Of a stretch of DNA of 64,000 bases, positions 24,686 to 36,122 are shown one piece after another. The notes under the pieces are model-generated. The model saw only the letters and a list, made by a program, of their open reading frames with translations. It made no database searches and was not told the origin of the DNA. Both the position numbers and the translations under genes were made by a program. Each line of letters opens with the position of its first letter. Position 1 is the stretch's first letter. This DNA comes from Nitrospirota bacterium. GTDB taxonomy: Bacteria > Nitrospirota > UBA9217. The stretch spans positions 30,480-94,479 of the forward strand of contig DASPSR010000008.1 of the NCBI GenBank assembly GCA_035623825.1, read 5' to 3'.

Positions 24686-24746
24686 CCCGCCGGAATCCGG
24701 CCGTCTAAAAGCGGAGCGGAACGCCGGAACCAGAAGGAGGCCTCTC

Positions 24747-25337
24747 ATGAAAAGGCTTACTCTTGTCATGGTGCTCTTCTTTTTCGCCGTCTCTGCATCA
24801 GCCGAGGAGAAGCGGTACACGGTGCCTCTCGGAGACTCGCCGACCAGCGGTCCGCAGGATGCGCCGGTCACTATCATAGAGTTCCTCGATTTCCAATGAC
24901 CGCACTGCGTGGCGGCCGGTCCGACCGTCAAGAAGATCATGGACACGTACAAGGGAAAGATACGGCTCGCGATCAAGAATTATCCGTACATATATCGTGA
25001 CTACTCCTACCTGGCGGCCGAGGCGTCGCTCGCGGCGCGGGACCAGGGCAAATACTGGGAGATGCACGACCTCCTGCTCAAGAGGTCTCCGAAACTCGAC
25101 CGCATGAGCCTCATCGGGTACGCGAAGGAGCTTGGGCTCGATGTAAAGGAGTTCACCGATTCTATCGACAGCGAAAGGCATGCGCAGGACATCGAACGTG
25201 ACGTACAACTCGCTACAGGAATGGACATTTACAATACACCCACGTTTTTCATCAACGGCCTCAAGGTCATAGGAGATCGGCCGTTCGCCGATTTTAAGAA
25301 GATCATCGACCAGGAGTTGAAAAATGCCAAACAATAG
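24747..25337 (+). CDS. DsbA/thioredoxin-fold periplasmic selenoprotein (UxxC; in-frame TGA 24897-24899 read as Sec)
   Basis: AAGGAGG RBS; signal peptide; GPQDAPVTIIEFLDFQ-TGA-PHC; the frame continues to TPTFFING; SECIS-like hairpin at 24910-24930. Confidence 0.85.
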
Positions 25338-26403
25338 GCCTATCCACCGGCTCGTCTTAATGCTGTGTTTTACACTTTCGATCGCCCTCTGCTCCTCATA
25401 TGCCTTTGCCGGGGATCTTGAGCCGTTCAAGGCCGTTCCCGTGCCGGAAGGGAACCTCCAGACGCCGGAGAAGATAGAACTGGGGAAAAAGCTGTTCTTC
25501 GACCGCCGGCTTTCGGGAGACGGGACCATGAACTGCGCGACCTGCCACGATCCGGAACAGGCGTTCACGGACGGGCTCGAGATATCTCTCAGCTATCCCA
25601 CGACGAGAAACTGGCGCAACTCGCCCACGCTCATGAACGTGGCGTTCCAGAAGTACCTGTTCCACGACGGCCGGGCGCGGACCCTCGAGGAGCAGGCGCT
25701 CTTCCCGATGATGTCGGCATTCGAGATGAACAGGAACCTCGATTTCGTCGAAGAGGTGATCAGATCCGTGCCGGAGTACGTTGACGCGTTCCAGAAGGTC
25801 TTCGGCGGCGAGGTCACGCGCGAGCGCATGGCCATGGCGATCGCCGCGTTCGAAAGGACGCTCGTTTCCCGGAACACGCCGCTCGACCGGTTCCTCAAGG
25901 GAGACCAGAAGGCGCTCTCGGAGGACGCGAAAAAAGGCCTGGCCCTGTTCAAGGGGAAGGGCAAATGCACCGAATGCCACTACGGCGTGAGCCTGTCCGA
26001 CGACATGTTCCATGCACTGAATGTACCGGAGGACCCGGAACACCAGAGCGATCCGCGGATAGCCACCACAAGGAGGTTCGTGGCCAAGGTCTATCATTTT
26101 GATGAGTATCGCACGCTCGCGGAGGACCCGGGCAGGTACCTGATCACCAAGGACAAGAAGGACTGGAAGGCGTTTCGGACCCCCACGCTGCTTGAGATAT
26201 CACGGACCGCTCCGTTCATGCATAACGGCATCTTCCCGTCGCTCGATGACGTCATCGATTTCTTCGACAAGGGAGGAGGGCAGGGGAATACAGCGCTCAA
26301 GCCTTTGGGGCTGAGCGCCAGGGAGAAGCAGTATTTGAAGACGTTCCTCATCGAGGCGCTGACCGGCGAGCCGTTCGTCATAGAGTACCCGAAAGTGCCG
26401 TAG
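25324..26403 (+). CDS. Diheme cytochrome c peroxidase/MauG family protein
   Basis: LGKKLFFDRRLS, CATCH, RNSPT, CTECH and AFRTPTL...TAPFMHNG motifs. Confidence 0.9.
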   Translation: MPNNRPIHRLVLMLCFTLSIALCSSYAFAGDLEPFKAVPVPEGNLQTPEKIELGKKLFFDRRLSGDGTMNCATCHDPEQAFTDGLEISLSYPTTRNWRNSPTLMNVAFQKYLFHDGRARTLEEQALFPMMSAFEMNRNLDFVEEVIRSVPEYVDAFQKVFGGEVTRERMAMAIAAFERTLVSRNTPLDRFLKGDQKALSEDAKKGLALFKGKGKCTECHYGVSLSDDMFHALNVPEDPEHQSDPRIATTRRFVAKVYHFDEYRTLAEDPGRYLITKDKKDWKAFRTPTLLEISRTAPFMHNGIFPSLDDVIDFFDKGGGQGNTALKPLGLSAREKQYLKTFLIEALTGEPFVIEYPKVP

Positions 26404-26477
26404 CCGGGAAACGATGTCCCGAGGACGTAGATTTTTCTGTCCCTTATCCTGCCCAAAGAAAAGAGGGGGGAGATCAG

Positions 26478-27239
26478 GTGAAAGTTGCCATCGAGGATAT
26501 CATCAGGGAAAAACCGCATCTCACGGACCCGTTCAGATTCTATCAAAAGGCCGTGAAATTCACGGAGTCGGTCAGGGGACTCCGGCTCCCTGCGCGACTG
26601 GAGATGCATTCCTATCCGCGTGAATCCGTCGACAGGGTATTCGAGATATTCTCCGCCATCTTTGAGTTCCCGGAGGGGACCCTCGCGCCGCTGAAACAGG
26701 CAATGGGGCTAAATGAGATTGACTTGACGCGTCTGCCCCTAGGCGAGATCCCTGCGTTCTCGCTCCCCTATCCCGAGGACGACCTGACAATGCTCCTGTT
26801 CCTCATCGGCAAGCCGTACTTTCTCGGCCTGCGGGAAGCGGTCAGCCTGGACAAGCGGGTATGGGAGGAGGGGAGATGCCCGGTGTGCAGCGCGCAGCCG
26901 TCGATAGCATGGATCGAGGGGGAGGGCCGGCGTCAGATCTCCTGTTCATTCTGCGGTACCGTGGGATATCATGAACGGATCGGTTGCATGATCTGTCAGA
27001 ACAGTGAGGGGCCGAAACAGAATGTTTTCGTCTTCCAGGGCGAATCGGCGTTCAGGCTCAATACGTGCGATGCATGCCGGTCGTATGTAAAGACCATTGA
27101 TGCCGGCATGCTTTCACGCATAGGCCCCGAGGTGGCCGACCTTATGAGCCTTCCTCTTGATATCGTGGTGCAGGAAAAAGGGTTCGAGCGTCGCTCACCG
27201 AACCCGATAGGCATGAGGAAAATATCGACTCACGGCTAG
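26478..27239 (+). CDS. fdhE: Formate dehydrogenase accessory protein FdhE-like
   Basis: CPVC, CSFC, CMIC and CDACRSYVK Cys motifs. Confidence 0.82.
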   Translation: MKVAIEDIIREKPHLTDPFRFYQKAVKFTESVRGLRLPARLEMHSYPRESVDRVFEIFSAIFEFPEGTLAPLKQAMGLNEIDLTRLPLGEIPAFSLPYPEDDLTMLLFLIGKPYFLGLREAVSLDKRVWEEGRCPVCSAQPSIAWIEGEGRRQISCSFCGTVGYHERIGCMICQNSEGPKQNVFVFQGESAFRLNTCDACRSYVKTIDAGMLSRIGPEVADLMSLPLDIVVQEKGFERRSPNPIGMRKISTHG

Positions 27240-27372: not shown

Positions 27373-27819
27373 CTACTTCATGATCTGGTCGATCCACTGC
27401 ACCAGATCGATTTTTTCCTTGGGGGCGCCGTCCATGCGCGCGATCTGCGTTCCGTTCTTGAAGACGACAAAGGTGGGCGTGGCCTTCACCATAAAACGCT
27501 GAGACAGGCCCGGTTCCGCGTCCACGTCGACCCTGACCACCTTCAAGCGGCCGGCCTTCCAGGACGCAAGGTCGTTCACGACCGGCTCGACCATACGGCA
27601 GTAGCCGCACCACTTGGCCCAGAATTCCAGAAGCACGAATTCCGGCCACTCGAAGATCTCGCGCTCGAAGGTCGCCGCCGTTGCATTGACGGGCGCCCTG
27701 GGGAACTCGAGGGCTTTCTTGCATTGTCCGCAGGCCGGGTGGCCCTCTAATTTCTCCGGGGGGACCCGGTTGAGCGTCTTGCACGAACTGCAGCGGATGA
27801 TGATCGACCTGTCCGGCAT
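27373..27819 (-). CDS. trxC: Thioredoxin 2 (Zn-finger, TrxC-like)
   Basis: CSSC...CGQC zinc finger; WCGYC active site; TPT cis-Pro loop. Confidence 0.85.
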   Translation of the reverse strand: MPDRSIIIRCSSCKTLNRVPPEKLEGHPACGQCKKALEFPRAPVNATAATFEREIFEWPEFVLLEFWAKWCGYCRMVEPVVNDLASWKAGRLKVVRVDVDAEPGLSQRFMVKATPTFVVFKNGTQIARMDGAPKEKIDLVQWIDQIMK

Positions 27820-27924
27820 ATGCACTCCTCATTTATTATATCATGCCCTCCCGGACATGACGGCGGCGGCCTGCGGACAGGCCTTCTGACTGGCCTCCGG
27901 GCCTTTTTCGGTATAAAATAAAAC

Positions 27925-29019: not shown

Positions 29020-29129
29020 TACGAGAGACAAGGGGCGAAAAAAAGCGACGATCATGGATGGTGGATGAGAGCTCCCCGGGTATGGTATATTGTAAACGTA
29101 AAATGGATCTTGTGGCCAAGGAGGATTTT

Positions 29130-29426
29130 ATGAAACCCGTTCTGACGTACATTGTGCTGGCGCTTGTTGCGATCTCGCTTGCCGGGTGCCTCTATACCAA
29201 CGTCATTGTCCCTTACGGGACAGAGCTCAACAAGACGGAGCTGGGCCATAAAAAGGGAACGGCTTCCACGTACTCCGTGGTGTGGCTCTTTGCCTGGGGC
29301 GATGCGGGGGCCGCTGCCGCGGCGAAGAACGGAGGTATCACAACGCTGACGCACATGGACCGTGAATTGCATGCCGTTCTGTTCGGCATTTACACGCGGC
29401 AGACCACGATCGTCTACGGCGACTGA
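29130..29426 (+). CDS. TRL-like small lipoprotein
   Basis: AGGAGG RBS; lipobox LAGC; WGDAG..AAAKNGGIT...TIVYGD. Confidence 0.75.
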   Translation: MKPVLTYIVLALVAISLAGCLYTNVIVPYGTELNKTELGHKKGTASTYSVVWLFAWGDAGAAAAAKNGGITTLTHMDRELHAVLFGIYTRQTTIVYGD

Positions 29427-29438
29427 CAGGAGCCCACT

Positions 29439-29774
29439 ATGCGTGCGATCGATCGAATGTCCGTCGTCATCGCTCTGTCCCTGCTCCTGGCGGGATGCGC
29501 TGGCGGCGTGTTGTTCCACAGCGGAATATATTCCCATACGGTGGAGCCGCTCACCTTCAACCGCAATCCGACCGACGTGGAGGGGAGCATGCAGCCGGCA
29601 AAAGGCGACATCAGGGAAATACAGTACTATGTCAGCGTTCAATGGGGAACGAACGGGATCGGCGATGTCGCCAGGAAGAACGGGATCACTACCGTCTATT
29701 ACGCCGATCTTGAAAGGCTGCGAGTACTATTCGGCATATGGCAGCAGGACATCGTGCACGTCTATGGGAGATAG
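29439..29774 (+). CDS. TRL-like small lipoprotein (paralog)
   Basis: Lipobox LAGC; WGTNGIGDVARKNGIT...VHVYGR. Confidence 0.7.
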   Translation: MRAIDRMSVVIALSLLLAGCAGGVLFHSGIYSHTVEPLTFNRNPTDVEGSMQPAKGDIREIQYYVSVQWGTNGIGDVARKNGITTVYYADLERLRVLFGIWQQDIVHVYGR

Positions 29775-35072: not shown

Positions 35073-36122
35073 ATGGCCGAAGAGAAAAAAGAGGAGAAGT
35101 TCAGGCTTACGGCACTAAGTCATGGGGCAGGCTGAGCGTGCAAGCTCGGTCCACAGGTCCTGGACCAGATACTCAAGTCCCTGCCTGCTGTCTCCGATCC
35201 CCGGGTACTGGTGGGCACCGAGGACGATGCCGGCGTCTATCAGATCACGGACGACCTCGCCATCGTCCAGACCGTGGATTTCTTCACGCCGATCGTCGAC
35301 GATCCCTACGATTTCGGGGCCATAGCCGCGGCCAACGCCCTCTCCGACATCTACGCCATGGGCGCCAAGCCGCTTACCGCGCTCAACCTGGTGGCCTTCC
35401 CGAAGGACGGGCCCCTGGAAGTCCTCGCCGGAATCATGCGGGGCGGTGCCGACAAGGCGATGGAGGCCGGTGCGAGCATCATCGGCGGCCACTCCATCGA
35501 TGACCGTGAGCCGAAGTACGGGATGGCCGTGACCGGCATCGTGGACCCCAAGAAGATGGCGCTCAAGGGAGGCGCGAAGGCAGGAGACGCGCTCGTTCTT
35601 ACCAAGCCGCTCGGCATCGGCATCATCTCAACGGCCATCAAGGCGGGCAGGGCTTCCGGGGAGGTCATCGCAATCGCCACGCGGAACATGAAGGCCCTGA
35701 ACAGAGATGCATCCGATGCGATGGCACGGGCAGGGATTAAGGGGGCGACGGACATCACGGGATTCGGCCTGCTCGGCCACTTGCACGAGATGCTCCATGT
35801 GAGCGGAGTGAGCGCGCGGTTGACGTTCTCCGGCATCCCGTTCATCCCCGGCGTCGGTGAGCTGGTAAAGTTCAGCGTTCCCGGCGGGACACGCGCGAAC
35901 CTCCGGTACATGAGCGACAAGGTAGGATGGGCGGCCGGCATCACCGAGGACGAGAAGCTTATGCTCGCCGACGCCCAGACGTCGGGCGGGCTCCTGATCG
36001 CTGTCCCGCGGGACAGGCTCGAGGGCCTTCTGGCCGAACTCGCCGCGCGGGGCGTTGAGACCCGCTCAGTGATCGGATATGTCACGGAAGGGGACGCGGG
36101 GAAGATATCCGTCGCGCGATAG
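35073..36122 (+). CDS. selD: Selenide,water dikinase SelD (selenoprotein; TGA 35133-35135 read as Sec)
   Basis: MAEEKKEEKFRLTALSHGAG-TGA-ACKLGP; DDAGVY, QTVDFFTP, DITGFGL and DAQTSGGLL; SECIS-like hairpin GGTCCA...TGGACC at 35148-35166. Confidence 0.95.

Follow-up and report, generated by a model that had tools for sequence, protein, structure and literature searches.

The window analysed here is a stretch of 64,000 nt from a Nitrospirota bacterium (contig DASPSR010000008.1, positions 30,480 to 94,479 of the forward strand). It contains a gene for a DsbA-like protein with an in-frame UGA, putatively a selenocysteine (Sec, U) codon, followed by genes for a diheme cytochrome of the CCP/MauG family (CCP, cytochrome c peroxidase) and for an FdhE-like protein. 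A first reading of the letters of the window, referred to as the original prediction, had proposed a hidden UxxC selenoprotein gene with an element resembling a selenocysteine insertion sequence (SECIS), i.e., a DsbA-fold open reading frame (ORF) with a signal peptide and TGA at the first Cys position of CxxC, which overlaps a CCP/MauG-family ORF and is followed by fdhE. The features of the locus are as follows:

24734..24740, + strand: Shine-Dalgarno-like AAGGAGG, 6 nt before the ATG of the DsbA-like gene, read from the sequence
24747..25337, + strand: DsbA/Thioredoxin_4-like selenoprotein gene, 196 codons, U51 in U-P-H-C, TAG stop at 25335-25337
24747..24803, + strand: Sec-type signal peptide MKRLTLVMVLFFFAVSASA with cleavage after ASA, predicted from the translation alone
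24897..24899, + strand: in-frame UGA, putative selenocysteine codon and first position of the UxxC redox motif, assigned by frame, conservation and aligned Cys
24910..24930, + strand: SECIS-like hairpin, 9 stacked positions with a C.A mismatch among them (24910-24918 on 24922-24930)
25324..26403, + strand: diheme CCP/MauG-family cytochrome c gene, 359 aa, with signal peptide, CATCH (71-75) and CTECH (215-219)
26478..27239, + strand: FdhE-like gene, 253 aa, four CxxC motifs, no signal peptide

The frame from 24747 to 25337 is broken solely by the TGA at 24897-24899, which stands in the context DFQ-U-PHC. Its translation matches Pfam Thioredoxin_4 (PF13462) over residues 31-188 (5e-28, 98.8 bits versus a gathering threshold of 23.2) and Pfam DSBA (PF01323; 1.4e-17, 64.6 bits versus 25.6). 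The Pfam match thus runs through the stop codon. As read from the translation, the N-terminus has neither a twin-arginine motif nor a lipobox; removal of the signal peptide would leave a protein of ~19 kDa. The redox motif U51-P-H-C54, located at the N-terminal end of helix 1, was invariant in the 67 sequences compared for residue conservation, and the mean column identity of the selenoprotein alignment was 76%. Our data show 24747-25337 to be one gene, predicted to encode an exported DsbA/DsbG-like thiol-disulfide oxidoreductase with selenocysteine as the putative nucleophilic active-site residue. Frame and Pfam matches thus bear out the DsbA-fold ORF of the original prediction, the signal peptide being a predicted one.

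Relatives were collected by a tblastn-confirmed scan of species-representative genomes, which yielded 389 relatives; the best 80 loci (63-79% identity), mostly from metagenome-assembled genomes of Nitrospirota and Desulfobulbales with a few isolates, were kept. The scan had no bias to TGA, because one search pattern assumed Cys at the site. TGA was present at the site in 80/80 loci, in the motif DFQ-U-PHC-[VMK]-[AG]-[AVT]-GP, with synonymous variation of the codons on both sides. In a separate sample of 301 genomes of the phylum, the 86 best matches (49-99% identity, from 81 genomes) each had one in-frame TGA, and in one more genome the selenoprotein gene was split across contig ends. No Cys form within the orthologous clade was seen in this phylum sample. 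Cys was found at the aligned site in 11 distant homologues, which read DFQ-C-P[YF]C, and a second Sec clade, D[YF]Q-U-PYC-ARL, had U in 5 loci (6 gene copies). The Cys/UGA alternation that an alignment of homologues had been expected to reveal does exist, but only against the distant homologues with 33-44% identity: it is found at the family level, the members of the orthologous clade having Sec throughout, to identities as low as 49%. The distribution of this Sec-only clade was shown to comprise Nitrospirota and Desulfobulbales. The original prediction had named TGC or TGT at 24897, or close relatives without the TGA and hairpin, as findings that would speak against a selenoprotein. At 24897-24899 no differences were seen in the contigs from three further peat metagenome runs that cover this codon, and the TGA was kept in all 80 relatives. 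The SECIS region 24897-24938, conserved at the nucleotide level, holds ends or starts of contigs from three peat metagenome runs, which probably mark a branch point of the assembly graph between related strains.

The hairpin at 24910-24930 begins 11 nt past the UGA, where the original prediction had placed it. Counted from the U of the UGA it extends from +14 to +34, over codons 55-62, with the loop G-U-C at +23 to +25. It is identical to the minimum free energy fold of the 25 nt from 24908 to 24932 (−8.6 kcal/mol), so that position and structure were both borne out. In the 81 sequences used for codon and hairpin comparisons, codons 56-61 (A-A-G-P-T-V, four-fold-degenerate) had a normalised synonymous entropy of 0.104, compared to 0.829 ± 0.152 for the other 130 eligible codons, and were the lowest of 131 six-codon windows. 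The synonymous positions of P52, H53, C54 and of codons past 61 were free to vary. At the level of sequence comparison, this synonymous suppression over codons 56-61 is the signature of a SECIS element. For the helix formed by positions 14-22 and 26-34, 88.5% of the cells were paired versus at most 51.5% with the partner strand slid. The mismatched pair 20-28 changed solely toward pairing (C.A in 57, C-G in 16 and U-A in 6 sequences), and G22, G23, C25, C26 and G27 of the loop region were invariant. The geometry of loop G23/U24 presumably matches that of E. coli fdhF. As PMC1088965 words it, a bacterial SECIS follows closely 3′ of the UGA as a stem-loop whose small apical loop contains G, and the hairpin at 24910-24930, with loop G23-U24-C25, has this form.

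Several results count against the hairpin. Its stability was not exceptional compared to shuffled sequences (z = −0.70, 46/200 shuffles as good), and in contexts of 40 and 64 nt other folds were better. Loop U24 was G or A in 7/81 sequences. The covariation score was matched by 91/500 shuffles, the changes being too sparse to prove the register, and RNAalifold favoured another weak register (−2.53 kcal/mol). The latter was rejected since the invariant GG would be buried. Fold energy alone proves nothing for a hairpin in this G+C-rich stretch. Conserved TGA and suppression at synonymous sites bear out the hidden UxxC selenoprotein gene with a SECIS-like element, and our comparisons show a SECIS hairpin (+14 to +34) that would assist in decoding the UGA.

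Sec codons are also present elsewhere in the source genome, namely in selD, in fdnG (HQARI-U-HS, behind a twin-arginine signal) and in a second DsbA-like gene. The selD gene lies within the window:

35073..36122, + strand: selD (selenophosphate synthetase), own Sec codon at 35133-35135, start uncertain (35034 or 35073)
35148..35166, + strand: SECIS-like hairpin of selD, GGUCCA/UGGACC, loop CAGGUCC

SelD matches TIGR00476 with 375.7 bits across 1 TGA, in the context G-A-G-U-A-C-K. Its hairpin has −15.3 kcal/mol in a 40-nt context (z = −2.41, 3/200 shuffles as good), and the GGUCC likeness between the two similarly placed hairpins, noted in the original prediction as GGTCC near the apex, is real.

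The search for the decoding machinery gave results that oppose this view. SelA (PF03841) and SelB (PF09107, TIGR00475) were not found in the assembly of the source genome, which is 89.65% complete and consists of 67 contigs, and tRNA-Sec was likewise not found there (Rfam below cut-off; ARAGORN listed 40 tRNAs, none for Sec). Within the window ARAGORN found no tRNA, and Rfam gave no match at gathering thresholds. SelA was present in 16/18 genomes of the same family (among 30 relatives), and tRNA-Sec and SelB scored above cut-off in 5/5 relatives picked among SelA-positive genomes. In the same-genus genome G002, which has an orthologue of the selenoprotein (79% identical, with TGA), selA, selB and tRNA-Sec are located on one contig within ~7.5 kb, and therefore one assembly gap could remove all three. 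A comparison of this contig with the source genome by blastn and tblastn showed that synteny is not conserved, and it did not separate gap from loss. The original prediction had named a genome lacking selAB and tRNA-Sec as evidence against itself. The assembly formally is such a genome, but this is best explained by the missing 10%. We conclude that the organism probably decodes Sec and that its selA, selB and tRNA-Sec genes are probably unassembled.

The first 14 nt of the diheme ORF also belong to the DsbA-like gene, and the next ORF encodes an FdhE_C domain, in agreement with the gene order described originally. The diheme protein matches Pfam CCP_MauG (8.8e-53), and C71, C74, H75, C215, C218 and H219 were invariant in the 68 sequences compared. 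Downstream neighbours were counted over the loci with DNA there for the diheme gene, and over the 73 loci with at least 900 nt past the diheme gene for FdhE-like genes. A diheme gene followed the selenoprotein gene in 76/76 loci (76/80 overall; in the remaining 4 the contig ends within 170 nt of the selenoprotein gene). This strictly conserved neighbourhood confirms the proposed coupling to a CCP/MauG-family gene. Stop and start of the two genes overlap in part of the loci; elsewhere, according to tblastn coordinates, they are separated by gaps of ~70-250 nt or by inserted toxin-antitoxin-like genes. Selenium-dependent translational coupling of dsbA(U) and ccp would be possible but is not needed, given an AGGAG that belongs to the diheme gene itself (8 nt before the ATG) and an overlap that is not conserved. 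Small ORFs between the two genes (L025:4879-5592, L033:5049-5459, L038:5058-5405) resemble toxin-antitoxin components (PIN-like, MazF-like), as judged from their first residues only.

The best NCBIfam matches of the diheme protein were under cut-off, with 241 versus 443.85 bits for MauG (TIGR03791) and 200.1 versus 362.85 bits for MbnH (TIGR04039). It aligns to true CCPs mainly via its N-terminal domain (best 5.6e-50). His71, Trp94 and Met275 of the P. aeruginosa CCP are hallmark residues of canonical bacterial CCPs. In a pairwise alignment to the structure 1eb7 these correspond to Tyr91, His114 and Phe314, with low confidence in the Met275 region. Tyr91 was invariant in the 68 sequences, and an invariant Met299-His300 is found at another place. 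The diheme peroxidase of the original prediction stands as far as the two CxxCH motifs and the CCP_MauG domain are concerned, while peroxidase function is uncertain given the three replaced hallmark residues and the MauG and MbnH scores below cut-off. The protein appears to be a distinct member of the CCP/MauG superfamily, for which we assume peroxidase activity. A second CCP_MauG gene is present in the source genome on contig C42.

The FdhE-like protein matches Pfam FdhE_C (PF24860; 2.1e-11, 44.3 bits versus 27), and TIGR01562 with 60.1 bits, below the cut-off of 187.65 and over its C-terminal half only (residues 132-244). An FdhE-like gene followed the CCP gene in 51/73 loci. ORF clustering of the 80 loci revealed, upstream and on the same strand, genes for a molybdopterin oxidoreductase and for a 4Fe-4S protein with a Form-deh_trans helix, together with an anchor gene for cytochrome b561 in 38 loci or NrfD in 14. 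In tblastn searches with the source genome's own proteins, FdnG and/or FdnH were encoded upstream on the same strand in 51/80 loci, and 33 loci had FdnG/FdnH upstream plus the FdhE-like gene downstream. This position at the end of fdnGH(I) clusters supports an FdhE role of the FdhE-like gene. In the source genome, fdnG(U)-fdnH-fdnI (the latter a cytochrome b gene) lies on contig C39:37074-41639 (L120) with no fdhE behind it, and a second FdhE fragment is found at a contig end (C16). A set of 16 distant DsbA-like loci (Cys forms and the second Sec clade), for which up to ~5 kb were fetched on each side, less at contig ends, had CCP, FdhE or Fdn neighbours in 0/16 cases within the fetched DNA, for Cys and Sec forms alike. 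The coupling is therefore clade-specific. Positions 26990-27234 are covered by one 245-nt contig from an RNA library; this coverage is too small to speak for an operon transcript or for an expressed selenoprotein.

The association with formate dehydrogenase (FDH) is also seen at the genome level. In the phylum sample, an FdnG match at E ≤ 1e-150 was obtained in 79/82 genomes that carry the selenoprotein gene and in 40/219 non-carriers; the three carriers without a match are fragmented assemblies (83-90% complete). By hand count, 31 genomes have the selenoprotein gene and FdnG on the same contig within a few kb. FdnG of the source genome is closest to FdhA of D. gigas and D. vulgaris (1076 and 1033 bits), followed by E. 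coli FdnG. The cysteines aligned with C845 and C872 of D. vulgaris FdhA are kept in the source FdnG and in 40/40 FdnG proteins adjacent to the module (41/41). In DvFdhAB, as described in PMC11323313, the C845-C872 disulfide is an allosteric switch that controls activity and is part of the protection against O2; the same source states that an FDH can reduce O2 to H2O2.

Other aspects of these data weaken a link to FDH. Shared ancestry and the Sec trait as such confound and inflate the co-occurrence of carriers and FdnG. The Cys pair is present in D. gigas FdhA, too, and may be a general feature of this FDH clade; its presence is compatible with the switch model, not proof of it. Furthermore, acs takes the place of fdn upstream in 16/80 loci, including the window, and 9 loci with room have neither acs nor fdn.

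Considering both sides, the Sec-containing DsbA-like gene of a Sec-only clade and its fixed diheme partner probably form a two-gene unit that is accessory to the periplasmic, Tat-exported (twin-arginine translocation), Sec-containing formate dehydrogenase FdnGH(I). From its context we infer that the unit belongs with FdnGH(I), which the original prediction had missed; the presence of the FdhE gene would thereby be explained. The gene order in most lineages would be fdnG(U)-fdnH-fdnI/nrfD-dsbA(U)-ccp-fdhE, while in the source lineage, with fdnGHI on another contig, dsbA(U)-ccp-fdhE would have stayed joined behind acs.

As for the mechanism, we tentatively propose a periplasmic peroxide/redox module. 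The diheme enzyme would use up periplasmic H2O2, which metal-dependent FDHs can make from O2, and the selenoprotein would undergo selenylsulfide or disulfide exchange with a client in the periplasm, for which the FdnG Cys pair that matches the O2-protective allosteric disulfide C845-C872 of D. vulgaris FdhAB is the best candidate. The diheme enzyme may act as an H2O2-driven oxidant of the selenoprotein or as a parallel scavenger. A more specific and more doubtful idea is that the selenoprotein and its diheme partner are the missing in vivo operators of the O2-protective allosteric disulfide of periplasmic W/Mo-Sec FDHs. The diheme protein would then sense and consume H2O2 and hand oxidising equivalents to the U-P-H-C protein, which would close a switch of the C845-C872 type and reopen it under reducing conditions. 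If true, this would be a peroxide-gated selenol relay tuning a CO2-reducing enzyme.

The original prediction had the exported oxidoreductase work with a diheme peroxidase. Along this line, the selenoprotein and the diheme enzyme could be a self-contained periplasmic couple, independent of FDH, for example an H2O2-driven DsbA oxidase that takes the place of DsbB in anaerobes, or a selenol-dependent pair that reduces peroxide. Only co-regulation would then have made FdhE and fdnGHI its neighbours. The pair is indeed the invariant core of the loci (76/76), it persists without adjoining fdnGHI (acs upstream in 16/80, neither in 9), and its ORFs overlap by 14 nt in the window. We nevertheless regard such independence as rather unlikely, considering that FDH is found in 79/82 carriers versus 40/219 non-carriers and that an FdhE-like gene travels with the pair even without fdnGHI (in 12 loci acs precedes the pair and FdhE follows it). 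A donor or acceptor for the couple was not identified; no search was aimed at DsbB or VKOR. The strict adjacency in 76/76 loci would also suit a selenoprotein that is a dedicated maturation factor of the adjoining diheme cytochrome, acting on the thiol state of the apocytochrome CxxCH motifs and having no other client, and thioredoxin-fold proteins such as CcmG and ResA do act on apocytochrome c. A Sec-only, highly conserved enzyme (76% mean column identity) would be costly for a single substrate, and the link with FDH and FdhE would be left unexplained, which makes this role quite improbable.

Only slightly more credible, and still unlikely, is a diheme protein that acts as a protein-modifying enzyme like MauG or MbnH and introduces an H2O2-driven oxidative post-translational modification into the selenoprotein or FdnG. 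MauG-family enzymes typically adjoin their protein substrate, the top NCBIfam matches are MauG (241 bits) and MbnH (200 bits), and in place of the CCP residues His71, Trp94 and Met275 the protein has Tyr91 (invariant), His114 and Phe314. Both NCBIfam scores fall well short of the required 443.85 and 362.85 bits, true CCPs are the closest matches of the N-terminal domain (5.6e-50), and no candidate for a modified residue was identified. Finally, the TGA could be a true stop, in a pseudogene, between two small genes (50 aa, and 142 aa from GTG 24909) or in an organism with a non-standard code. The failure to find selA, selB and tRNA-Sec in the assembly and the unremarkable energy of the hairpin fit a true stop. 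Against it, 80/80 loci of two phyla keep the TGA and both flanks, the codons before and after it varying synonymously. The TGA separates the signal peptide and the first strand of the fold from the remaining fold, and distant homologues have Cys aligned at the site. Furthermore, selD and fdnG have TGA at their known Sec sites, and table 11 yields ordinary long ORFs elsewhere in the window. A true stop is thus highly improbable; a pseudogene and a non-standard code were rejected on the conserved TGA and flanks, the domain across the TGA, the aligned Cys and the normal table-11 ORFs.

UxxC selenoproteins of the DsbG-like (PF13462) and DsbA-like (PF01323) kind were catalogued computationally by Kryukov, Zhang and Gladyshev (PMC1088965, PMC1794560) and have been known since 2004-2006; a DsbA-like TGA gene was listed for Desulfovibrio (PMC1914089), and reviews of 2022 and 2026 call the functions uncharacterised (PMC9312934, PMC13188914). 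The protein encoded in the window shares with the catalogued families the thioredoxin/DsbA fold, Sec as first residue of UxxC, the existence of Cys homologues, and a SECIS that has a G in its small apical loop and lies closely 3′ of the UGA. Judged by the descriptions given there, the present clade is set apart by being Sec-only to 49% identity, with the motif U-P-H-C-[VMK]-A-[AV]-G-P, and by its fixed position beside a diheme CCP/MauG gene and its link to fdnGHI/fdhE, neither of which is mentioned in the accessible sections of those accounts. Within the literature covered, which excludes subscription-only papers, we found no account of a cytochrome c peroxidase, FdhE or an fdn operon in combination with a selenoprotein of this kind, in agreement with the earlier statement that no pair of this type is known to have been characterised. 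The kind of selenoprotein is already known, while the Sec-only clade, its fixed diheme partner and the tie to a periplasmic FDH appear undescribed.

The best NCBIfam match of the selenoprotein is NF041057 (Rcas_1661 thioredoxin-like (seleno)lipoproteins), a curated family that can carry Sec. The protein is not a member, since it reaches 86.6 versus 190 bits, lacks a lipobox and has 196 aa compared to the 247 positions of the model. The closest solved relatives (9.3e-19 to 1e-9) are BdbD of Bacillus subtilis (3eu3), 3gyk and ScsC/DsbA-like copper-resistance proteins. They share the exported DsbA fold but are Cys enzymes, and their PDB titles give no selenium, CCP or FDH context. The diheme protein resembles the diheme CCPs of P. 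aeruginosa (1eb7) and P. pantotrophus (2c1u) and Geobacter MacA (4aal) in its two CxxCH hemes and its N-terminal domain (~1e-48 to 1e-50). It has the CCP_MauG domain in common with MauG and MbnH-like enzymes (3l4m, 6e1c), while staying below the cut-offs of the MauG and MbnH models. The associated FDH shares with E. coli FDH-N (fdnGHI and fdhE) and Desulfovibrio W/Sec-FdhAB a catalytic subunit with Tat signal and Sec, a beta subunit with 4Fe-4S clusters and a Form-deh_trans helix, a cytochrome b (or NrfD) anchor and a terminal FdhE-like gene. It differs in that dsbA(U) and ccp, two additional genes for periplasmic proteins, stand between the anchor gene and fdhE; no account of such a gene order was found in the literature covered.

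Since gene callers truncate it at the UGA and its scores stay below the cut-offs of all curated NCBIfam models, annotation is likely to miss this exported selenoprotein, which is common to many Nitrospirota and Desulfobulbales. The fixed, atypical diheme partner, the position in FDH clusters and the co-occurrence with FDH suggest that a periplasmic selenium enzyme has an accessory system not described so far. Periplasmic formate dehydrogenases are studied as catalysts of CO2 reduction, including their oxygen sensitivity and redox switch (PMC11323313), and a dedicated periplasmic redox partner of FDH would be directly testable in culturable carriers such as Desulfopila aestuarii DSM 18488, from which locus L077 comes. 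With Sec throughout, the clade also lends itself well to the question of what keeps selenium in a DsbA-type active site.

Further DsbA-like selenoprotein genes were observed. The second exported one of the source genome, on contig C27 at ~129601-130458 (L148:4647-5501), reads SDYQ-U-PYC-ARL. It has an extra N-terminal domain of ~115 aa and no CCP/Fdn neighbours, and matches NF041057 with 63 bits. Members of its clade, with TGA, also occur in 5 further relatives' loci. Some relatives have tandem UxxC DsbA-like genes (L044:2858, G016:C249:5416-6727); the second gene of L044 (LDYQ-U-PLC) is located between the first copy and the diheme gene. At G012:C8:21971-31703 the selenoprotein gene is flanked by two FdnG genes, 78-79% identical to the source FdnG. 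The FdhE-like gene of the window adjoins a thioredoxin-2-type gene with an N-terminal zinc ribbon (27373-27825, − strand), and the same neighbour is found in 7/80 loci. In G002 (C81:18798-19707), tRNA-Sec lies directly upstream of homologues (~58-59% identity) of the window ORFs 29058-29426 and 29439-29774; in the window rtcA, in place of tRNA-Sec, lies upstream of these two ORFs.

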